From assembly GCA_964473905.1 (NCBI GenBank), contig CAYYQY010000002.1:7683-71682 (forward strand): a DNA stretch of 64,000 nt, in the 5' to 3' direction. Source of the DNA: an uncultured Dehalococcoidales bacterium (GTDB lineage Bacteria > Chloroflexota > Dehalococcoidia > Dehalococcoidales > CAYYQY01). The notes beneath the pieces were generated by a model. The model worked only from the letters and a program-made list of their open reading frames with translations, had not been told where the DNA came from and searched no databases. Positions 54,183 to 64,000 of the stretch are shown here, piece by piece (the stretch's first letter is position 1; each line of letters starts with the position of its first letter). The translations under genes and the position numbers were made by a program.

Positions 54183-55175
54183 ATGGAGATAGGCATAGGC
54201 AAAATAAGGGGCTTACAGCAGATTGCTGATTCAGACGGTATATTGTCTATGTGCGCTATGGATCACCGCGGGTCATTACGCAGTATGATTGCCGAGGAAT
54301 GTAACCGGGCAGTTGAATACTCCGAAATGGTGGGTCGTAAAATTGAACTGTGTTCCATTCTGGGCAAGCATGCCAGCGCTGTCCTTTTAGACCCCGTATT
54401 CGGTGCTGCTCAGTGTATAAGCCGTACGGCCCTGCCCCGTGATACCGGGCTTCTGGTCAGTATTGAGGCTACCGGTTATTCCGGGGGGCAGGAACAGCGT
54501 CTTACCCAGCTACTTGAAGGGTGGGGGGTTGAGAAAATTAAGCGTATGGGTGCCTCGGCAGTTAAGATACTGGTGTATTACCGTCCGGATTTGAAAGAGC
54601 TGGCCCGGCAGCAAAGGGATGTAATCAGTAAAGTGGCCAATGAATGTATCCGGTATGATATTCCTTTCCTGGTGGAGCCAAAAAGTTTCCCCGTAGGTGA
54701 TGAAATCAATAATCCGGCGAAATTTGCAGCTATCAAGGAACAACTGGTCATTCAGTCGGTTGTAGATATCACAGCTCTACCCATAGATGTGCTGAAGGGT
54801 GAGTTCCCGGTAGACCTTGGACCTGAACGCAGTGAAGCCCATGCTATCGAGATCTGCCGGCAGTTAAATGATGTGTCCAGAGTGCCCTGGGTCATTCTGA
54901 GTGCCGGGGTGGACTTTGAACTTTTCTGCCGGCAGGTGGAGATTGCCTGTAAGGCTGGTGCCTCCGGTTTTTTGGGCGGGCGGGCTATCTGGCAGGAAGC
55001 CATGAATATTGATAATGAGCAGAAGAGAGTTGGATATCTGTCAACGGTGGCGGTGGACAGGCTGAAAAAGCTGATTGGCATAGCCTCCAGGTATGGTGTA
55101 CCGTGGTACCGCAAGTTCGGGGGGAGTGTCGGTGAACTTGCCAAGATATCAGAATCGTGGTATAAAGAGTATTAA
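54183..55175 (+). CDS. Class I tagatose-1,6-bisphosphate aldolase family protein (LacD-like)
   Basis: GILSMCAMDHRGSL, AVLLDPVFG, ASAVKILVYY, IPFLVEP and ILSAGV...GFLGGRAIWQ are collinear with LacD. Confidence 0.8.
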   Translation: MEIGIGKIRGLQQIADSDGILSMCAMDHRGSLRSMIAEECNRAVEYSEMVGRKIELCSILGKHASAVLLDPVFGAAQCISRTALPRDTGLLVSIEATGYSGGQEQRLTQLLEGWGVEKIKRMGASAVKILVYYRPDLKELARQQRDVISKVANECIRYDIPFLVEPKSFPVGDEINNPAKFAAIKEQLVIQSVVDITALPIDVLKGEFPVDLGPERSEAHAIEICRQLNDVSRVPWVILSAGVDFELFCRQVEIACKAGASGFLGGRAIWQEAMNIDNEQKRVGYLSTVAVDRLKKLIGIASRYGVPWYRKFGGSVGELAKISESWYKEY

Positions 55176-55176
55176 A

Positions 55177-56157
55177 TTGAGACGTCCTACTATTGCTACA
55201 GTAACTCTGAACCCCAGTCTGGACATTACTATTACTGTCCATGGACTAATACTAGACGACACGAATCGGTGGTCTAATTCACGTATCTATGCTGGCGGTA
55301 AAGGTATCGCCGTATCCCGTGCCATCCATGAGATGGGTGAGCGGACGGTAGCCCACGGCTTTATTGGTGGTTCTCCTGGCAGAAACGTTGAAATCCTGCT
55401 GGATGAGGAGGGAGTCCCCTTCGCTTTAACTCCTGTTGAGCATGAAACGCGCACCAATTTTATCATTACTGACAGCAAGACCATGCAGCACACGCGGATT
55501 GATGCGCCGGGCCCCCGTATCTCCCAGAGGGAATTTGACAGGTTTCGGAGTAAACTGCGGCAAATAGACCCTAAGCCGGCACTTATTGTGGTCGGTGGCA
55601 GTGTGCCCCCCGGTGTAGCGGCCAACATCTACTATGACATGATTAAAGAAGCCAGTGATTTCGATGTAAAGTGTATCCTGGACTCTGACGGCCAGTGGCT
55701 GGAGGAGGGGATAAAAGCCAAGCCTTACCTCGTTAAGCCCAATGTTCGGGAAGCAGAGGGGCTGCTCAAGAGAGAGTTGGGTGATGAGGAGTCTATTATT
55801 GAGGCTGCCTGCGAAATCGTGGACAGGGGTGTTAAGATAGCCGTTATCTCCATGGGTAAAGAAGGCATTATCGCGGCGACTAAGGAAAAAATAGTCAAGG
55901 CATTACCTCCCGGCGTAAAGGTCAAGAGTACCGTGGGTGCCGGGGACTCGGCGGTAGCCGGGCTCAGTTTAAAACTGGCTTACAGAGAGTCTCTGATAGA
56001 GGCCTGCCGTTTGGCTGCGGCTATGGGAACGGCCGCTGTTTTAACTCCGGGCACCGAGCTTTGTCACCGGGCCGATGTGGAAAGGATACTGCCGCTGGTA
56101 CAGATTTCGGAGGTAGCCACGGCAAAGCGTAGCCGGGAAGCCTTTACCCCGGTTTAA
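55177..56157 (+). CDS. PfkB-family sugar-phosphate kinase (1-phosphofructokinase / tagatose-6-phosphate kinase-like)
   Basis: IATVTLNPSLD, AGGKGIAVSR and VGAGDSAVAG. The TTG at 55177 lies 1 nt after the aldolase stop and is preferred. The ORF track starts at 55093, inside the aldolase gene. Confidence 0.8.
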   Translation: MRRPTIATVTLNPSLDITITVHGLILDDTNRWSNSRIYAGGKGIAVSRAIHEMGERTVAHGFIGGSPGRNVEILLDEEGVPFALTPVEHETRTNFIITDSKTMQHTRIDAPGPRISQREFDRFRSKLRQIDPKPALIVVGGSVPPGVAANIYYDMIKEASDFDVKCILDSDGQWLEEGIKAKPYLVKPNVREAEGLLKRELGDEESIIEAACEIVDRGVKIAVISMGKEGIIAATKEKIVKALPPGVKVKSTVGAGDSAVAGLSLKLAYRESLIEACRLAAAMGTAAVLTPGTELCHRADVERILPLVQISEVATAKRSREAFTPV

Positions 56158-56190
56158 GCGGAATCTATAATATATAGCACCGGTTGGCGT

Positions 56191-57015
56191 TCACGCTGAC
56201 AGGTGTTTTTTTATTTTGGGGATAGCTTCTTGAGCGGCGAGTTTACCCTGTATAATGCAGTCCTCGGCCAGCTGGAAATCAGCGGGACCAATATGCGCTA
56301 CACGGGGTTTAATAGCTATATCGGCGTTCTTTAAACAGGACTTGGTAAGAGAGTGAGTGCCGATATAGACGGATTGCATAAGTATATGGAAGACATTAGG
56401 CTCTTTGGAGCCCCTGGTTTTATTCTGGTCTATCCAGTGCCCCCTGTCCCTTTTGGTAATATCGGGAAGCACATTTACCGCTATTATGTAGTCTGCCCCC
56501 ATCTTTTTCAGGATGCTGGCCGGCACCGGGTTTACCAGCCCGCCGTCAACCAGGTATCTATCGTCTCGCTTGACCACCGTGAATATGCCGGGAATGGAGA
56601 TGCTGGCTCTTACGCCGTCGATTACCAGGCCTTCATCTACTACGACTTCCTCGCCGGTCATTATGTCGGTAGCCACACAGGCAAAGGGTATGTTCAGCTC
56701 GCTGAAGCTTACACGGTTACCGATAAGTGATTTGAACCAGTCCTCTATTTTCTTACCGCCGATTAGCCCGGTTCGGGGCAGGACTAAGTCCACCAGCGGC
56801 GCCAGACGTAGCCAGCGTAGCTCCGTAGCCAGAGTCTTAAGGCGGCCCGGTGTTAGCCCACGGGCATAAAGGGCACCAACTACAGCACCGGCACTGGTGC
56901 CGGCAATCATGTCAACAGGGATGCCCTCTTTTTCCAGTACCTGGAGCACGCCGATATGGGCTATGCCGCGGGCGGCACCGCTCCCCAGGGCCAGCCCTAT
57001 CTTCTTATCAGACAA
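56191..57015 (-). CDS. Patatin-like phospholipase (RssA/COG1752-type)
   Basis: GSGAARGIAHIGVL (oxyanion hole), GTSAGA (GxSxG) and VDGGLVNPVP (catalytic Asp). Confidence 0.88.
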   Translation of the reverse strand: MSDKKIGLALGSGAARGIAHIGVLQVLEKEGIPVDMIAGTSAGAVVGALYARGLTPGRLKTLATELRWLRLAPLVDLVLPRTGLIGGKKIEDWFKSLIGNRVSFSELNIPFACVATDIMTGEEVVVDEGLVIDGVRASISIPGIFTVVKRDDRYLVDGGLVNPVPASILKKMGADYIIAVNVLPDITKRDRGHWIDQNKTRGSKEPNVFHILMQSVYIGTHSLTKSCLKNADIAIKPRVAHIGPADFQLAEDCIIQGKLAAQEAIPKIKKHLSA

Positions 57016-57047
57016 CTTCTCTGGTTGCCCCCGTTAAGATTATTATT

Positions 57048-57539
57048 TTAAGTGTTATTTATTCCAAGGAACCAGGGACGGATAGTAAACCACCGGGCGG
57101 GGTACAGGAACAGAATAATCAGGGGTAAAATAAGCATCCCGATATCCATGTACAGGGCCTGTAAAGTGGACATGTAGTAGCCCAGGAAAGAGTTTTCAAT
57201 GGCTCCAAAGCAACCGCAGGGCTCTTTGGCCATACCATTAATGGTTAGGCTATTATTGAAGATAAAAGCGGCGATAAGCACTATAGAGCCGCTGGCGGCT
57301 ATCCTGGCTAAGATTCCGGTTACCAATAAGGCACCAGCGACGATTTCTATGGTAGGTAGCCAGAAAATAATTGTCTTAAGTAAGACAGGCGTGAGAAACA
57401 TCTCGGCGGGCAGGGCGATAACCAGCCCTTCACTCTGCTCCGGTAGCTTCCCTGAGCCCGCGGTGATAAAAATAGCCCCCAGAATGATACAGGCGGCTAC
57501 CCCCAGCCAGAATCTAAAGCCACGTCTTTTTAATCCCAC
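57048..57539 (-). CDS. MauE/DoxX-family membrane protein
   Basis: 163 aa, 4 TM segments, with the CGCFG motif typical of MauE-like proteins. The GTG start overlaps the herA stop by 10 nt. Confidence 0.6.
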   Translation of the reverse strand: MGLKRRGFRFWLGVAACIILGAIFITAGSGKLPEQSEGLVIALPAEMFLTPVLLKTIIFWLPTIEIVAGALLVTGILARIAASGSIVLIAAFIFNNSLTINGMAKEPCGCFGAIENSFLGYYMSTLQALYMDIGMLILPLIILFLYPARWFTIRPWFLGINNT

Positions 57540-59167
57540 AGTTCCTCTATGTATTTTGTCGGTTGTTCCCGAAGCTTACCGTAACCGCCCGTCATATAAT
57601 CCCCGTAGGAAGCGGCTGAACCCCATTCGCGGGGCTGGAAGGGTACCGGCATGGGCACCGCATGGCCGAAAATCAGTGCCTGCTGTTTGGGTGCCAGCCG
57701 GCTCAGCACGGCTTTAAGCTCGTTTTTACCCGGCGTTCCGGCCAGCACGCTGTCAATATCTCTTTCGTTGTCCAGGAGGCAGGTAATCTTGGTTCCCATC
57801 TGGGACATAATCTCCTCGTCTATGCTGCTGGGACGCTGGTCAATCACAAGCAGGGTGGCGTTATACTTTCTCATTTCACGGGCAATCGTGCCGAAGATAG
57901 TCCTGCCGGCAACCTCGGGGTTAAGGAACTTATGGGCTTCCTCAATGGTTATCACCAGAGGTCGGGGTGGCTCGCTGTTTTCCCCCATTGCCTTTTCTGT
58001 TCTCTCCTGATACCGTGCATATATGCGGCGGGTAAGCATGTTGGCTACCAGTAAATAGGAAGTGATATCCCGGTGGCGGCCGAACTCCAGGACCACGTTT
58101 ATACCACGGTCCAGTTTCTCCAGCACGGAGTTAACGGCATCGGACGGGCCTTCGGCATCCCTGGCAGCTTCTTGTATAAAGGGCAGCCGGGCGATGGTAG
58201 CCAGCCCCCGCTGCAGGTTTTGGAAGGTGCTCTCGTGTATATTCATCTCTTTTAATAATTCGTCTCTTTCCGTGCCGGAATCTTTTAGCTGCAGGGTGTT
58301 CTTGAGCCAGTTTCTGCCAAATCTCTTACGCAACTGGTAAACCGCTTCCACGGCGGGTTCGGTGAGGTTTAGTGTTTGACGCAGCAGTACCATGTCCTCG
58401 GGAACGATTTCGTCGTAGCCTATTCTGACCACGCAGTCAACACTTACTCCCCGGTGCCGTGAGTTTTCCTCGTCAAGGGTAAAGACAGCCACCTTTTCCG
58501 GGAAAAGCTGCTTGAGCGCTTGCACCTTGTATCCTGATTCGCTGCTTCCTTCCCAGCCGTACTCGTTGTGCATATCAAAGATAAGGTTTACCGCCTTGCT
58601 CTTCTGCAGCATGCCAGCCAGTAGAATACGGGTCAGGAAGGTCTTGCCGGTGCCGCTTTTACCGAAAATACCGTTGGAACGTGTTACCAGCTTCTCCAGG
58701 TCAAGGCAGAGCTTGGTCTCCATGTCCAGCGGGTTGCCGATATGAAATCTCTGCTCGTCCTCTTTACCAAAGACAAGCTCTATATCCCGTTCCGTGGCTA
58801 TGTTGACTGCTGAGAAATGGCCTGGTACTGTCTTCACCGGCTGGGGACCATCAAGCAGGGTACTCACATCACTGCCAATGGTAAGCATCGGCAGGACATG
58901 GACTATACCGTAGGTGCTGGTGCCGACGAGAACCTCGGCGGTGAAGGGATCAGAGGTGTCGGGCGGGGTAATGGTAAGTTTCGGGTCGGTAACAGCCAGG
59001 CTGATATCGGTAATCATGCCAAAAAAGCGCTGTTTTTGCCCTTCGATGGTTACGTAACGCCCGACGGTAACGTCTTCTATGGAAGCCCGGCTATCAAGCC
59101 GTATCTCCATCCCTTTGGCCAGCGAGCCAGCGACAACGATGCCCAGGCGGTACTCCTCCTGGTTCAT
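57530..59167 (-). CDS. herA: HerA-like FtsK/HerA-superfamily ATPase (DUF87)
   Basis: N-terminal HAS-barrel-like segment (VGRYVTIEGQKQRFFGMITDI), Walker A GIFGKSGTGKTFL, Walker B LVITIEEAHKF, and LLVIDQRPS. Confidence 0.8.
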   Translation of the reverse strand: MNQEEYRLGIVVAGSLAKGMEIRLDSRASIEDVTVGRYVTIEGQKQRFFGMITDISLAVTDPKLTITPPDTSDPFTAEVLVGTSTYGIVHVLPMLTIGSDVSTLLDGPQPVKTVPGHFSAVNIATERDIELVFGKEDEQRFHIGNPLDMETKLCLDLEKLVTRSNGIFGKSGTGKTFLTRILLAGMLQKSKAVNLIFDMHNEYGWEGSSESGYKVQALKQLFPEKVAVFTLDEENSRHRGVSVDCVVRIGYDEIVPEDMVLLRQTLNLTEPAVEAVYQLRKRFGRNWLKNTLQLKDSGTERDELLKEMNIHESTFQNLQRGLATIARLPFIQEAARDAEGPSDAVNSVLEKLDRGINVVLEFGRHRDITSYLLVANMLTRRIYARYQERTEKAMGENSEPPRPLVITIEEAHKFLNPEVAGRTIFGTIAREMRKYNATLLVIDQRPSSIDEEIMSQMGTKITCLLDNERDIDSVLAGTPGKNELKAVLSRLAPKQQALIFGHAVPMPVPFQPREWGSAASYGDYMTGGYGKLREQPTKYIEELWD

Positions 59168-59757
59168 TGCCTTATCCCTCCCAGGATAGTCCTGAGCTGG
59201 TCATATTGACTGCCGAGCAGCACGGCCAGCTCTTTGCCGGCGGCTACCAGAAAGGCACGGCGGTCCTCATGGGCCTGGCTTATATAGCGAAGCGAGGCAG
59301 CGACCAGCTCGTTCGGGGGCAAGGGTAAGTGTGTATTTATCAGTATATTGAGAAAATTAAGGGAGCTACTGAACTCCCGGGTCTCTTCTTGGGAGCACAG
59401 GTGGACAAAGCCGTGTATGTGTGCTGGCACCGGCGGCAGATAGTGATAGACGCTATTATCCTGACGGTAGCCAGTAACCAGGGCGGTAAAATCACTGCAC
59501 AGCAGCTCCTTAAGCTGCGGGCTGGAGCTATAGATTGCTTCCTCGCTGGTCTCGTTCTTGCCGCGGGCTATAGCGCGCCGCCCCGGATCAATACTGCCGG
59601 TAGTGGCGTTATAGACTATTCCGTAAAGTTCGAGCGGTGCGGCTTTCGTCTTGACCAGGCTGCCGAAGGGTGGTAGCTCGAAAAGCTCGTAGCACTGGGC
59701 GGTAAAAACGGTAGTGCTCGCCTCAATAACCTCACCTACTCTTTGTCCTTCTTTCAT
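59164..59757 (-). CDS. Hypothetical protein translationally coupled to herA (N-terminus weakly HAS-barrel-like)
   Basis: 197 aa. The stop overlaps the herA ATG (ATGA). VGEVIEASTTVFTAQCYE...GSLVKT...LYGIVYN is a beta-rich pattern; I recognise no family. Confidence 0.5.
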   Translation of the reverse strand: MKEGQRVGEVIEASTTVFTAQCYELFELPPFGSLVKTKAAPLELYGIVYNATTGSIDPGRRAIARGKNETSEEAIYSSSPQLKELLCSDFTALVTGYRQDNSVYHYLPPVPAHIHGFVHLCSQEETREFSSSLNFLNILINTHLPLPPNELVAASLRYISQAHEDRRAFLVAAGKELAVLLGSQYDQLRTILGGIRQ

Positions 59758-59807
59758 GGCTAAGTCTCTGTCTCTTCTCTGTCAGCTGTTATAAATCCTT
59801 GCTGCCC

Positions 59808-60650
59808 TCAGTCCCAGTGTATTTTTATATCGTTAACGATGCCCGGGGGTTCAAACCAGCTATGGCCTAGGTCTTTACCACTCTCTTCCAGGGCTGTTCT
59901 TTTATCATCCAGGCTTGCTTCCCAGGCTTCAATTTTAACCAGTTCGGTTGAGTCTTTACGGAAAGACTTGCCGCGGACCTCTTCGTTGTAGGCCATTACC
60001 TCCTGGTTATACTCATTAAGCAATTTATTGCGCTCATGCCAGGTTGCTTTGTACTGTTCATAGTAGGCATATGTCTGCGATTTAGCTTTGGTTATGTCTA
60101 TGAGACCGTATTCTTTGCCCGTCTCTAAATAGGCCAATGTATCGTAGTTAAAACCGTTATTAAGCCCCAGGGCAGTGGCCTCTTGTATTTTCGATTCTAC
60201 TAAAGCCAGGGAAGCCGGGTTCATTTTTTCCTCCAGAGAGTCGCCGGTGCAATCAATGTAAATCAGGCCCTTATCCGTAGTCTCAAAAGCATTCAGGGCG
60301 TGTCCCTCGCTTGTCCCGGCGAATTTTATGCTTACCCAGGCAGCCCTGATGCCGGCTGCTTCGGCGTTATTATGGACATCCTCGGCGAAATCACTGCACA
60401 CGTAGCTTTGCGCAACATAGGTATTGGCATCTGTCCTGTCCTTAATGATGAAATCCAGAAGCTCGGCATAGGTGGGGTTATGGGCATCGGGATTGTTTAT
60501 TAACTGAATCGGGTTACCGTCTCCGCCGATTTCAATTATACCGTCATTGTAAATTTCCTCCGTGACTATACTGCAGCCGGCAATCAGACTGGCGAGACAC
60601 AGCAGTATCCCGAGAACATAGTACGAATGCCGGATAAGCTTGCCGCTCAC
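59808..60650 (-). CDS. Lipoprotein with a transglutaminase-like Cys-His-Asp core
   Basis: Lipobox LIAGC after a signal peptide. YVCSDFAEDVHNNAEAAGIRAAWVSI...EGHALNAF...LIYIDCT resembles the transglutaminase-like cysteine-peptidase core. The C-terminal part is coiled-coil-like. Confidence 0.45.
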   Translation of the reverse strand: MSGKLIRHSYYVLGILLCLASLIAGCSIVTEEIYNDGIIEIGGDGNPIQLINNPDAHNPTYAELLDFIIKDRTDANTYVAQSYVCSDFAEDVHNNAEAAGIRAAWVSIKFAGTSEGHALNAFETTDKGLIYIDCTGDSLEEKMNPASLALVESKIQEATALGLNNGFNYDTLAYLETGKEYGLIDITKAKSQTYAYYEQYKATWHERNKLLNEYNQEVMAYNEEVRGKSFRKDSTELVKIEAWEASLDDKRTALEESGKDLGHSWFEPPGIVNDIKIHWD

Positions 60651-60690
60651 TTAAAAAAACTCTCCGCTGTCTTTTCTATATAGTAAGTTG

Positions 60691-61893
60691 TTATATCCAC
60701 CTTGTCCTCTTGCTCAGACTCTTGGCAGAGCCGGTGCCGGCTATATTTTCTCTAGCCAGGACTGATTCCACCAGTTGCCAGAAGGCGGTCCTGTCCGCTT
60801 CGGTTACGACTGCCTTTTCATGGGCTTCCATCAGGGCTACCGGATAGCCATGACCACGGCGGCACTGGTCTGAAATTAGCGCGTGGGCCAGGTTAAGCAG
60901 GCTGTCGCTGGTGGCTACCCAGCCCGGTATCTCAATCCGGGCGATTTCACTGTCATCTACTTTAAAGTAGAAAAAATAAACCTGGTGGTACCCATAGTGC
61001 TTGATAACGGTAGAAGACTGGCTGGCAAATATGTCTGATCTTTCATTCGGGCCCAGCAGCGCCCGGAACAGGTCCTGGTCACGTATACCGGCCAGCGCAT
61101 CGCATTCCCTTGTGGTGCAGTTTGAGCAGTAGCGGTCGGTATCTACTATTTCCTTGGGGCACAGGGCCACCCGCAGGGTATTTACTACATCGGTACCGCG
61201 TGGCGAGCTGATATACCCGCCAAGGGTAATCTGCCTGCTTTTATTAAGACTATTAATTTGTTCCAGACTGTGCAGAAATCCCTGCTCCAGCAGTGCCCGG
61301 GTAACGAACTCCGGGTAAGCCTCCAGGCTCCACAGGATTAGCGAGCCGTCAACCAGAGCCAGGCTTTTACTGTCAGGCGGTAGCTCCGCAGCCAGTCTGG
61401 CCAGCTCTCCACACTCGTCCACGCTGCGCTTGATGTTGAGCAGGGCACCTTCAATGGGTTGCTCGCGGTTTTTACTACCCTCGGCCCTGATGGTTAAGTC
61501 TTCATCGTCAAAGTAAAGGCGCGGCGAGTTATCCAGGGTAGCACCGGGGCTGCTACCGTACTGGATACTTGATGAGCCGGTATTAATCAGAAAACATCTT
61601 GTCGACCGGTGCCGGTCAACATCAATCTGAGAGCCGTCAGCGGCCACCACGGTGAAGTTTTGGGGAGGGGGCGGGGCATGGTATCGCTCATCCAGACCGT
61701 TTACCAGGCCGGCTACCAGCCAGGTAGTTTTACTGGCGGTAATCTTATGCTTTAGCCCGGGTATGTCCTTAGCCCGGGCGTGGAGGGTATCCAGCGCATA
61801 ATGTAACCGTGTGTCTTGCTCGTTACGGCCAGCCTTGAGGCTGGATATCATCCCTGTCACCTGCGTAGCTACTTTAGTTAAGTCCAGCGACAT
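60691..61893 (-). CDS. nurA: NurA-domain nuclease
   Basis: VVAADGSQI (catalytic Asp), LALVDGSLILW and GHGYPVALMEAHEKAVV; the bacterial NurA layout over about 400 aa. Confidence 0.75.
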   Translation of the reverse strand: MSLDLTKVATQVTGMISSLKAGRNEQDTRLHYALDTLHARAKDIPGLKHKITASKTTWLVAGLVNGLDERYHAPPPPQNFTVVAADGSQIDVDRHRSTRCFLINTGSSSIQYGSSPGATLDNSPRLYFDDEDLTIRAEGSKNREQPIEGALLNIKRSVDECGELARLAAELPPDSKSLALVDGSLILWSLEAYPEFVTRALLEQGFLHSLEQINSLNKSRQITLGGYISSPRGTDVVNTLRVALCPKEIVDTDRYCSNCTTRECDALAGIRDQDLFRALLGPNERSDIFASQSSTVIKHYGYHQVYFFYFKVDDSEIARIEIPGWVATSDSLLNLAHALISDQCRRGHGYPVALMEAHEKAVVTEADRTAFWQLVESVLARENIAGTGSAKSLSKRTRWI

Positions 61894-61929
61894 CTCTATT
61901 TTAGTCCTTCTTGATAGTAAGTTTATGGC

Positions 61930-62625
61930 CTAGGCCATAAATAGGATACGCCCGCAATTACTGCACTGTACCAGTTTATGGGTCCTGACCTGCTGTAAAT
62001 GAGCCGCGGAGAGAGAGATATGACATCCCTGGCAGATTCCCTGCTCCACCCTGGCTACGGCGTTGCCCCTCTGCTTTTTGAGTTTACTGTATATTTCAAG
62101 TGTCTCCTGGTCTATGCCGTCGGATATTGTTTTACGCTCCTTGCCCAACTGGGCAAGAGTTAGCTTGAGCTTTTCTATCTCACCGGATAGTCTCTGCTGC
62201 TCGCCTTGCCATTCAGTTTCCAGCTTTTTTAGTTTGCTTCCGGTTTCGGCTATGCTGGACTCGGTCTCTTCCGTTTGTTCCATTATCTCCAGAGCTTTGT
62301 CCTCAAGCTGACTGCGCCGGGAACTGAATCCCCCCACTTCATGCTGGAGGCTGGCCAGTTCCTTGGGGTTAACTATATGGCCACCGTATAGCTTTTTTCC
62401 GGCATCGGTGATTTTGGTTGTCAGGTCGTCTATATCCCATTCCAGGGAGTGCTGTTGTCGCTTGAGTTCCTCAAGGTGCGCCGACCCCGATGCTAATTTA
62501 CTCCGGGTCTTATTAATCTGCGCACTCTCTCCAAGCTGACCGGTGGCCTGTTTTAGGGCTTTTTCGCTGGTTTCAATTTGAAGGTCAAGCTCTGATAGAT
62601 AGTAAAGCTGACTGGCAACACTCAT
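61930..62625 (-). CDS. Coiled-coil protein with a C-terminal C4 zinc ribbon (COG1579/DUF164-like)
   Basis: Long heptad region and then CQGCHISL...CSNCGRIL. Confidence 0.7.
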   Translation of the reverse strand: MSVASQLYYLSELDLQIETSEKALKQATGQLGESAQINKTRSKLASGSAHLEELKRQQHSLEWDIDDLTTKITDAGKKLYGGHIVNPKELASLQHEVGGFSSRRSQLEDKALEIMEQTEETESSIAETGSKLKKLETEWQGEQQRLSGEIEKLKLTLAQLGKERKTISDGIDQETLEIYSKLKKQRGNAVARVEQGICQGCHISLSAAHLQQVRTHKLVQCSNCGRILFMA

Positions 62626-62862
62626 TCATTCACCGATTGTATTTATAATTATAGGCTATTTTATACCAGCTACCAGACAATATCAATTTATCACCGTAAA
62701 AAGGTGACAAAATGGTGTTGTCATAACAGAACAAATGTGCTACTATCTACAGCACACATGGCGGCGGGAGGGCTATGGGATTATTGAGATCAGCTATTGA
62801 AAGCCGGAGATGGGGCTTGGCCGCTCATACTATAGTTCTGGCTGCTGTCAAGCTACTTAACG

Positions 62863-63237
62863 ATGGAGAAAGACCAGATGGTCACAGAAGGAAAAAAGAA
62901 ACGGGGAGCTCCCAAGGGCAACCAGAACGCCAGAAAGCACGGTTTCTATTCGAAGGTGCTGGATGAGGCGGAACAGCTTGATTTTGAGCAGGCCTGCGGG
63001 GTTGACGGTATGGATGACGAGATTGCCCTGCTGAGGGTAAAGATTAAGTCCATTCTTACTTATGACCCGGAGAACGTCAAACTGATTATGCAGGCCACCA
63101 ATATACTGGCCAGGCTTATCAAGACAAAATATAACATCTCCAAGGATCAGAAGAAGGGGCTAAAAGAGGCGATAGGTAATGTGCTGCGGGATGTGGCTTT
63201 GCCACTGGGTATTGGTATCGGGACGGCTATTAAGTAG
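62863..63237 (+). CDS. Putative phage terminase small subunit
   Basis: N-terminal GAPKGNQNARKHGFYS motif, common in phage small-terminase-like proteins, followed by a helical region. Sits immediately upstream of the large terminase. Confidence 0.5.
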   Translation: MEKDQMVTEGKKKRGAPKGNQNARKHGFYSKVLDEAEQLDFEQACGVDGMDDEIALLRVKIKSILTYDPENVKLIMQATNILARLIKTKYNISKDQKKGLKEAIGNVLRDVALPLGIGIGTAIK

Positions 63238-63252
63238 TGAGCCGTTATTTAA

Positions 63253-64000
63253 ATGACATGGATGAAGAGGTATGAATTGGCAAAGGTAGCACAAACGTCG
63301 CTGAACAGGTTGCGCTGCTACCAGCGTGAGATAGCCATGGCGATACTGGACAGTATCTTTGGCCGGAAGGGGCTGACCTTTTCCGTGGAGATAGCGCGGC
63401 AGGGAGGCAAGAATGAACTGTCCGCCCAGCTTGAACTGTTGCTGCTGACTCTCTATATGGCGGAGCCGGTAAATCTGGTAAAATGCTCACCGACCTTCAA
63501 GCCACAGACAGTAATCTCTATGCTGCGGCTGAAAGACAGGTTGAACGATGCCGGATTTAACGGCATATGGGCAAACGAGCTGGGTTACATAGTTCGTCTG
63601 GGGAATGCCCGAACGATATTCCTATCCGCCGACGAGACGGCTAGCGTGGTGGGTAATACTGCCCATGTTCTGCTGGAAGTGGATGAAGCGCAGGATGTGG
63701 GTAAGGAAAAATACACCAAGGAATTCAAGCCGATGGGGGCGACTACCAATACCACTACTGTACTGTACGGCACTACCTGGGACGATTCCACGTTGCTTGA
63801 GGAGGTAAAGCAGACCAATCTGGAAATGGAAAGAAAAGACGGTATTAAACGTCATTTCCGGTATGATTGGGAGGCAGTAGCCCGGGAAAATCCCTATTAC
63901 CGGGCTTATGTTGAGGCGGAAAAGGAGCGCCTGGGGGAGGACCATGCGCTATTCTTGACCCAGTATCGTTTACTGCCTATCCGGGGCGGCGGCGGCTTTT
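63253..64000 (+). CDS. Phage terminase large subunit, N-terminal ATPase part (the 3' end lies outside the window); not in the ORF track because no stop is reached
   Basis: My translation: MTWMKRYELAKV...SVEIARQGGKNELSAQ (Walker A-like)...AHVLLEVDEAQDV (Walker B)...TTVLYGTTWD...RHFRYDWEAVARENP...LFLTQYRLLPIRG. The frame is open to base 64000. Confidence 0.7.
   Translation, partial: MTWMKRYELAKVAQTSLNRLRCYQREIAMAILDSIFGRKGLTFSVEIARQGGKNELSAQLELLLLTLYMAEPVNLVKCSPTFKPQTVISMLRLKDRLNDAGFNGIWANELGYIVRLGNARTIFLSADETASVVGNTAHVLLEVDEAQDVGKEKYTKEFKPMGATTNTTTVLYGTTWDDSTLLEEVKQTNLEMERKDGIKRHFRYDWEAVARENPYYRAYVEAEKERLGEDHALFLTQYRLLPIRGGGGF

Follow-up and report, generated by a model that had tools for sequence, protein, structure and literature searches.

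A Chloroflexota nurA–hasP–herA module with a predicted barrel-only paralogue of HerA

NurA–HerA is the archaeal solution to DNA-end resection and, to our knowledge, all of its structural models have two components. The genes herA, mre11, rad50 and nurA make up the classical archaeal end-resection set (PMC3326311, PMC2288612), and in Deinococcus the nurA–herA pair has been described as a two-gene operon without a third subunit (PMC9960219). Here we describe a related locus in a stretch of 64,000 nucleotides (nt) from an uncultured Dehalococcoidales bacterium (contig CAYYQY010000002.1, positions 7,683 to 71,682; hereafter referred to as the window). Its minus strand carries nurA and herA within an array of seven genes (56191-62625 in window numbering). 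An earlier interpretation made from the letters of this DNA (hereafter, the sequence-only reading) had left two options for the array: a housekeeping end-resection module with passengers, or an undescribed HerA/NurA-based defense or membrane-linked system. The array is a conserved three-gene core, nurA…hasP–herA, accompanied by changeable neighbors, and not a seven-gene system, because the gene-order survey, the synteny and the GC content set its genes apart. Thus, the first option was essentially right, in that the neighbors vary across loci, and the second is unsupported, in that the array genes other than the triad vary.

We coined the name HASp (gene hasP) for the product of the third gene, a protein of 197 amino acids (aa) that had been taken for an orphan. 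We consider it probable, at roughly 65%, that nurA…hasP–herA encodes a vertically inherited, archaeal-type DNA-end-processing helicase–nuclease with HASp as its third, Chloroflexota-specific subunit, and that the other genes of the array do not encode components of it. A class-wide, three-component nurA–hasP–herA module with a predicted barrel-only HerA paralogue is new: no publication describing a stand-alone HAS-barrel partner came up in the literature searched, nor did one on NurA or HerA of Dehalococcoidia or on the RecBCD/AddAB status of Dehalococcoides.

Conservation of nurA, hasP and herA in Chloroflexota

The three core genes lie on the minus strand of the window: nurA (60691-61893; 400 aa), encoding a NurA-family nuclease; hasP (59164-59757; 197 aa), whose product has no family match at standard thresholds; and herA (57530-59167; 545 aa), encoding a protein with HAS-barrel and DUF87 domains. 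As read directly in the window sequence, hasP and herA overlap by 4 nt (ATGA), and herA overlaps the next gene, which encodes a MauE-like membrane protein, by 10 nt (GTGGGATTAA; the mauE start codon is GTG). Both overlaps had been noticed before, and they had been interpreted as start/stop coupling of herA on both sides. They are real, but only the coupling to hasP is conserved; that to the MauE gene is lineage-specific.

Over ~90 related loci, nurA, hasP and herA were the sole genes of the array that kept together. For the first 83 HerA-bearing loci, we called open reading frames (ORFs), which were then queried with the window proteins and with a HASp-family profile. The hasP gene was directly upstream of herA in 69 of the 71 loci with room for it; 51 loci showed an overlap of exactly 4 nt, and 62 showed one within 12 nt. 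Upstream of hasP–herA, and no more than 10 kb away, nurA was present in 43 of the 50 loci having at least 5 kb of upstream DNA. In 24 of 55 loci, nurA and hasP were contiguous, at a spacing of -10 to about +100 nt (exactly -10 nt in nine cases), and in 29 loci they were 0.25-3.6 kb apart. The sequence-only reading had proposed neighborhood conservation as a check on its two options. Flanking and intervening genes vary freely, and nurA is within 100 nt of hasP in the 24 loci mentioned above; this outcome favors the housekeeping option and speaks against the seven-gene one. The notion that two unrelated genes are wedged between nurA and herA holds for the lipoprotein gene, which is a passenger, but not for the 197-aa gene, which belongs to a large, herA-linked family and is predicted to encode a paralogue of the HerA N-terminal domain (see below).

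One locus was unique in encoding a HerA (55% identical) with neither hasP nor nurA nearby despite upstream room (L081:10001-14609). In this locus, a PriA helicase gene follows herA and an LPG-synthase-like gene precedes it on the opposite strand.

The module is widespread. More than 120 database clusters, named Dehalococcoidales, share 73-78% identity with the window HerA. Two HerA motifs were also used to scan a set with a single genome per GTDB species; the scan was anchored on HerA, as HASp alignments are too diverse. HerA relatives were found in at least 597 species-level genomes (597 of the 600 stretches among the matches listed), and the named relatives among those matches were all Dehalococcoidia or Chloroflexota, including Dehalogenimonas chromosomes. 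Between the window and one related locus, L013, synteny stretches beyond 12 kb, with about 70% identity between the proteins and the shared order NurA…HASp–HerA–patatin–pfkB–aldolase–PlsC–IspH–CaiB-like and onward. HASp had no match in PLSDB plasmids, GenBank phages or IMG/VR. Because of the spread over at least 597 species genomes, the long synteny, the host-like GC content of the core and the absence of HASp from these mobile-element collections, inheritance of the module looks vertical, class-wide and syntenic rather than mobile.

In soil-type Chloroflexota, the HASp subfamilies of which are more distant, we found the gene order hasP–herA–mre11-like (Metallophos)–rad50/sbcC-like in a JGI contig and in four loci of the survey (L092:8955-12569, L094:8956-15191, L099:8183-15369 and L086:10001-16756). 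Genes of these operons overlap by 4-8 nt in L092 and L094, the HerA of L086 is orthologous to that of the window (~520 bits), and the flanks of the four operons contain no nurA. In a further lineage, labeled Anaerolineae bacterium, nurA and hasP abut and an mre11-like gene is nearby. Since hasP–herA is thus joined to mre11/rad50-like genes, which belong to the archaeal end-resection set, these arrangements support a role of the module in DNA-end processing.

HASp and its predicted association with HerA and NurA

HASp homologs amounted to 2490 clusters at 90% identity and to 755 representatives at 50% identity (E<=1e-3), 458 of the latter at E<=1e-10, and the named sources of the family were exclusively Chloroflexota. 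No Pfam or NCBIfam family covered HASp at standard thresholds, and a PDB sequence search with the HASp family profile gave no match. When 74 diverse members were scanned singly, 36 matched the HAS-barrel family PF09378 (best E=1.8e-8); the HASp of the window scored below the cut-off of 25.2 bits (13.2 bits, E=0.099). An hhalign comparison of HASp with the HerA N-terminus was weak (E=0.0042, probability 8%), and a comparison of charge and isoelectric point was uninformative, as HASp, the HerA N-terminus and NurA are all acidic.

The AlphaFold2 (AF2) model of HASp computed from a diverse alignment had a pLDDT of 96.9 and a pTM of 0.91; a prediction from a close-homolog alignment, which gave a pLDDT of 51, was discarded in its favor. 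In the model, residues ~1-122 form an N-terminal β-barrel region that includes a short helical insert, and a bundle of five helices makes up the C-terminal part. In a Foldseek search of the PDB, the best 50 matches to this model were HerA chains only (best E=2.5e-7), with alignments that typically covered ~127-158 columns (for instance, 127 columns at 2.3 Å for 9c1m_Q). They included the HerA chains of Thermococcus and Sulfolobus HerA–NurA and of Deinococcus HerA, as well as the HerA chains of SIR2–HerA, DUF4297–HerA and TdpAB. The HASp sequence contains no P-loop and no catalytic motifs. Because all of the best 50 PDB matches of this confident model are HerA chains, HASp is predicted to be a paralogue of the N-terminal HAS-barrel domain of HerA that carries a helical tail and lacks the ATPase.

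We also came across an apparent NurA–HASp fusion in a metagenomic protein of 372 aa (P0321), which we rejected as Rosetta-stone evidence; it occurs only once, its low-complexity linker is frameshift-like, and it probably is an assembly artifact of the -10 nt overlap that joined the NurA C-terminus to HASp.

The other two members of the core are recognizable but distant from their characterized counterparts. The window NurA aligned with positions 2-254 of the 254 positions of PF09376 (E=6.3e-28), with DGS motifs, and had no match in a PDB sequence search. The window HerA matched PF01935 (DUF87; E=7.2e-32) and the HAS-barrel family PF09378 (E=7.7e-8), and its Walker A (GKSGTGKT) and Walker B (VITIEEAH) motifs are intact; it is therefore predicted to be a hexameric double-stranded DNA (dsDNA) translocase ATPase of the HerA/FtsK superfamily. 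Its scores against the NCBIfam models HerA_Thermprot and helicase_HerA were 71.8 and 64.9 bits, respectively (cut-offs, 800 and 970), and that against the HerA_antiphage equivalog was 78.7 bits (cut-off, 800). By sequence, it was about equidistant from the SIR2-HerA, Sulfolobus, Thermococcus and DUF4297-HerA chains of the PDB. In a PADLOC scan, which the sequence-only reading had suggested as a way to reveal a defense system, the HerA matches were generic and partial (best E=2e-32) and those of the patatin very weak, and no model was matched by NurA, HASp, the lipoprotein or the MauE protein. Pfam and PADLOC scans detected no SIR2 or DUF4297 domain in the seven array proteins. By their sequences, the window HerA and NurA represent a distinct clade, distant in the case of HerA, outside the described defense systems.

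These features suggest how the three proteins may work together. HerA would be the hexameric dsDNA translocase motor of an end-processing machine, on the HAS-barrel face of which the nuclease NurA would be docked as in the characterized systems. The conserved ATGA start/stop overlap would allow HASp to be produced in step with HerA. As its fold, gene order and translational coupling suggest, HASp may use its HAS barrel to assemble at or beside the N-terminal collar of HerA; in this position, it may act as an adaptor or a gate for the contact of NurA with HerA and for the exit of DNA. The HAS face is the most likely site of HASp action because it is the NurA-docking face of HerA in Sulfolobus and Deinococcus (PMC9960219). 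HASp thus offers a testable handle on how a nuclease is mounted on, and controlled by, the HerA motor; hasP is strictly coupled to herA and is conserved class-wide, including in the cultivable Dehalogenimonas. Naming HASp also gives a likely role to an uncharacterized family of ~2,500 sequence clusters.

Neighboring genes and alternative readings

All seven ORFs are present on the minus strand, and their coordinates bear out the co-directional arrangement with spacings of no more than 50 nt or overlaps: the gaps from the Zn-ribbon gene to nurA, the lipoprotein gene and hasP are 36, 40 and 50 nt, respectively, and the herA-mauE overlap is followed by 32 nt to the patatin gene. The GC content is 0.53-0.55 for nurA, hasP, herA and the patatin gene, and 0.478, 0.488 and 0.501 for the lipoprotein, MauE and Zn-ribbon genes, respectively.

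The Zn-ribbon gene (61930-62625, minus strand; 231 aa) encodes a CT398/CdsZ-like coiled coil with a C4 zinc ribbon (Zn_ribbon_9; PF24481, 88.4 bits; PF02591, 37.4 bits). No homolog of it lies within 10 kb of herA in the 83 related loci, and relatives carry lysE, on the opposite strand, and secDF upstream of nurA instead; it is a neighbor specific to this genome and outside the module. The lipoprotein-like gene (59808-60650, minus strand; 280 aa) encodes a signal peptide and a LIAGC lipobox. Its product, which had been called transglutaminase-like on the strength of a C/H/D motif picked out by eye, had no Pfam match even at E<=5 and no NCBIfam, PADLOC or PDB-sequence match, so that this designation is not supported by sequence. 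Partial relatives occupy the slot between nurA and hasP in three other loci only (L005, L027 and L038). The gene between herA and the patatin gene (57048-57539, minus strand; 163 aa) encodes a MauE/DoxX-family membrane protein (PF07291, 49.5 bits against a cut-off of 27; PF07681, 24.3 bits against a cut-off of 23.6), and a homolog at the same position was found in L007 alone among the 83 loci. The lipoprotein and MauE genes are passengers, namely low-GC, lineage-specific insertions into variable slots.

The patatin gene (56191-57015, minus strand; 274 aa) encodes an RssA-like phospholipase (PF01734, E=5.8e-32), for which the best NCBIfam match was RssA (E=5.9e-48; 163.6 bits against a cut-off of 272). 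Scores against defense models were low (CBASS_lipase, 15.5 bits against a cut-off of 200; DS2_1_antiphage, 16.8 bits against a cut-off of 400; E of ~0.003-0.008). Of 67 loci, 20 have a patatin gene downstream of herA; all 20 are from close Dehalococcoidales, and in several of these relatives the patatin gene overlaps herA by 4-16 nt. As a rule, PlsC and IspH come after it, which also holds for the window. Because the patatin travels with PlsC, a lipid-remodeling role is more plausible for it, and it probably is a syntenic neighbor from a patatin–PlsC–IspH block of lipid housekeeping, not a component of the module. Between the patatin gene and plsC, the opposite strand of the window (54183-56157, plus strand) carries a tagatose-bisphosphate-aldolase-like gene and a pfkB-type kinase gene. 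This pair is shared with L013 and not with L001, pointing to a further small indel in the synteny block.

In the relatives, the junction between nurA and hasP is hypervariable, with 47 unrelated ORF clusters over 29 loci (for instance, L026:7855-9117, L045:7438-8712, L036:7629-8756 and L011:8686-9384). Of the 45 inserted ORFs of at least 100 aa, 38 point in the same direction as the operon. GNATs, DUF7670 proteins, methyltransferases and unknowns make up most of the inserts, and GNATs are the commonest family (5 of the 45 ORFs scanned). In ~3-Mb Dehalococcoidia genomes, a 164-aa GNAT acetyltransferase fills the gap in a packed nurA–GNAT–hasP–herA arrangement (L063:7647-11632, L082 and L083:7627-11605). 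Inserts of defense type include a methyltransferase (MTase)–Mrr fusion (L026), HEC-01A/B (AAA_21; L045), HepT, SLOG/LOG and an ADP-ribosylglycohydrolase; recognized defense genes fill only a handful of the 29 occupied slots. The Anaerolineae-labeled lineage has insertions on the other side of hasP: a 7.4-kb insert between hasP and herA with a 1301-aa MmeI-like type IIG restriction–modification (RM) enzyme and DUF4062 (L089:3973-11311), and an Rv0078B/AbiEii toxin–antitoxin (TA) pair with a Dam methylase after hasP (L087:8600-10436 and L088:3634-5455).

On the upstream side of the window array, the terminase genes that had been placed ~240 bp away indeed begin 238 nt beyond the Zn-ribbon gene. 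A TerS-like ORF (62863-63237, plus strand; phrog_1889, E=7.5e-9) is followed by a TerL-like ORF (~63250 to the window end at ~64000, plus strand), a fragment 36% identical to Bacillus phage terminases. Synteny with the relatives is broken upstream of nurA, beside these terminase genes, where the Zn-ribbon gene sits. A prophage or phage-derived element probably starts in this region and runs off the window. A consensus scan gave a sole good minus-strand intergenic promoter candidate for the array, a sigma-70-like site upstream of the Zn-ribbon gene (62658-62686, minus strand), which matches at 10 of 12 positions and is a consensus match only. The promoter scan was near the shuffle expectation (8 found vs 6.6 expected) and hence does not define the operon limits. 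The intergenic gaps of the array were free of terminator-like sites on the minus strand, and an Rfam scan of 55900-63300 detected no RNA element.

Several observations weigh against our interpretation of the triad as an end-processing machine. The window HerA is far under every NCBIfam HerA equivalog cut-off (65-79 bits vs 800-970), and it had no sequence match to Deinococcus HerA at E<=1e-3 in the PDB search; function is therefore transferred across a long distance. In 7 of the 50 loci with sufficient upstream DNA, no nurA was present within 10 kb, even by NurA profile search, and neither the window nor 80 Dehalococcoidia loci had mre11 or rad50 near the module. The position assigned to HASp on HerA is an inference from predicted fold, gene order and translational coupling. 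The role of bacterial NurA–HerA itself is disputed (PMC9960219). Finally, the recurrence of defense-type genes (RM, TA and HEC-01) inside the module of relatives could hint at a link with immunity, and the patatin-herA overlaps in relatives leave some room for a functional tie between these two genes.

The idea of a single, operon-encoded and membrane-linked HerA/NurA system comprising all seven window genes, with the lipoprotein, the MauE-like protein and the patatin as partners, draws on their co-directional order with gaps of at most 50 nt and two overlaps, on the single promoter-like site upstream and on the lack of minus-strand intergenic terminator-like sites. However, close spacing and start/stop overlaps are recurrent features of these loci, in which genes also commonly overlap unrelated neighbors; such features are therefore weak evidence of shared function or of a multi-gene system. 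The neighbors of the module in relatives are different ones: of 83 loci, none has the Zn-ribbon gene beside the module, one has the MauE gene and three have a member of the lipoprotein family. The patatin gene, present in 20 of 67 loci, moves with PlsC–IspH and is RssA-like rather than of the defense-effector type, and the lipoprotein and MauE genes deviate in GC content. The comparative context thus largely refutes the seven-gene system, which we regard as very improbable. In another reading, nurA–hasP–herA would serve primarily against phages and plasmids, or would be a RecBCD-like dual repair/immunity machine, and would degrade foreign linear DNA, with the inserted genes as co-operating defense cargo. 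A HerA ring with an effector is a recurrent defense design, and PADLOC HerA models match the window HerA with E-values down to 2e-32. The inserts between nurA and hasP include the MTase–Mrr fusion, HEC-01A/B, HepT, SLOG/LOG and the ADP-ribosylglycohydrolase, those of other lineages include the MmeI-like enzyme with DUF4062 and the AbiEii pair with Dam, and a phage-derived terminase region adjoins the array in the window. Against this stand the core-like spread over at least 597 species in conserved chromosomal synteny, the lack of HASp matches in plasmid, phage and viral collections, the lack of any PADLOC model matched by NurA or HASp and the score of HerA against the anti-phage equivalog (78.7 bits vs the cut-off of 800). 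Moreover, defense genes account for only a handful of the 29 filled slots, in which GNATs and unknowns are commonest, and the mre11/rad50 linkage points to repair. We therefore judge a primary defense role quite unlikely, although the module may still have a RecBCD-like dual role.

A different question is what HASp does within the module. It might be a decoy or negative regulator, the HAS barrel of which titrates NurA or caps HerA so that the machine is silent until needed. The fold of HASp is that of the NurA-docking domain of HerA, HASp has no catalytic motifs, and hasP is encoded between nurA and herA; furthermore, hasP–herA is kept where nurA is not adjacent, which fits a regulator directed at HerA. 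On the other hand, the 4-nt coupling to herA in 51 of 69 loci suggests co-assembly at a fixed ratio over tunable regulation, and it is doubtful that HASp is such a regulator. An end-processing machine with HASp as a structural subunit, the interpretation that we prefer, can also be put in a bolder form, which we advance tentatively. HASp, as a barrel-only paralogue of HerA, would be the obligatory third subunit of a NurA–HerA(–Mre11–Rad50) machine present throughout Chloroflexota and would form an extra collar between motor and nuclease, and RM, TA and other defense genes would insert preferentially at the operon junctions. If so, the HASp collar would alter the coupling of the 6-fold HerA ring to the 2-fold NurA dimer, and the junctions would attract defense genes since the machine processes the ends that those systems create, as in a RecBCD-like bridge between repair and immunity.

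Comparison with described systems

The Chloroflexota module most resembles the archaeal HerA–NurA(–Mre11–Rad50) systems of Sulfolobus and Thermococcus (PDB 4D2I, 9X1L/9X1M). The HerA layout is the same, with a HAS barrel, DUF87 and Walker A/B motifs; a NurA-domain nuclease is encoded alongside herA; the operon logic of herA–mre11–rad50 recurs in some Chloroflexota; and the archaeal HerA chains are the best structural matches of HASp. Unlike the archaeal systems, the Chloroflexota module adds hasP beside herA, a subunit without counterpart in the literature searched, and mre11/rad50 linkage is absent from the window. In addition, the window HerA (65-72 bits vs 800-970) and NurA are very divergent. 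The NurA–HerA system of Deinococcus radiodurans (PMC9960219; PDB 7WRW, 7F6D) is likewise a bacterial nurA–herA operon, and its HerA is among the structural matches of HASp (E of ~2e-5), whereas the sequence of the window HerA does not match it at E<=1e-3.

The HerA-effector anti-phage systems, namely SIR2–HerA (Nezha), DUF4297–HerA and TdpAB, likewise combine a HerA ring with a partner on the HAS face. Their HerA chains match the HASp model and, at the sequence level, the window HerA as well. Unlike these systems, the window array encodes no SIR2 or DUF4297 partner, and its scores are far below the equivalog cut-offs. Nor does the Chloroflexota module have an island-like distribution; it is core-like and syntenic, and HASp is found off mobile elements.

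The crown of N-terminal β-barrels in F1/V1-ATPases, the 'AS' in the name of the HAS barrel, has the same superfold and serves as a ring collar that holds the hexamer together. In that crown, the barrel is always part of the nucleotide-binding subunit, whereas HASp is predicted to comprise only a barrel and a helical bundle. By the precedent of the F1/V1 crown, a barrel-only protein such as HASp could join or stack on a ring.

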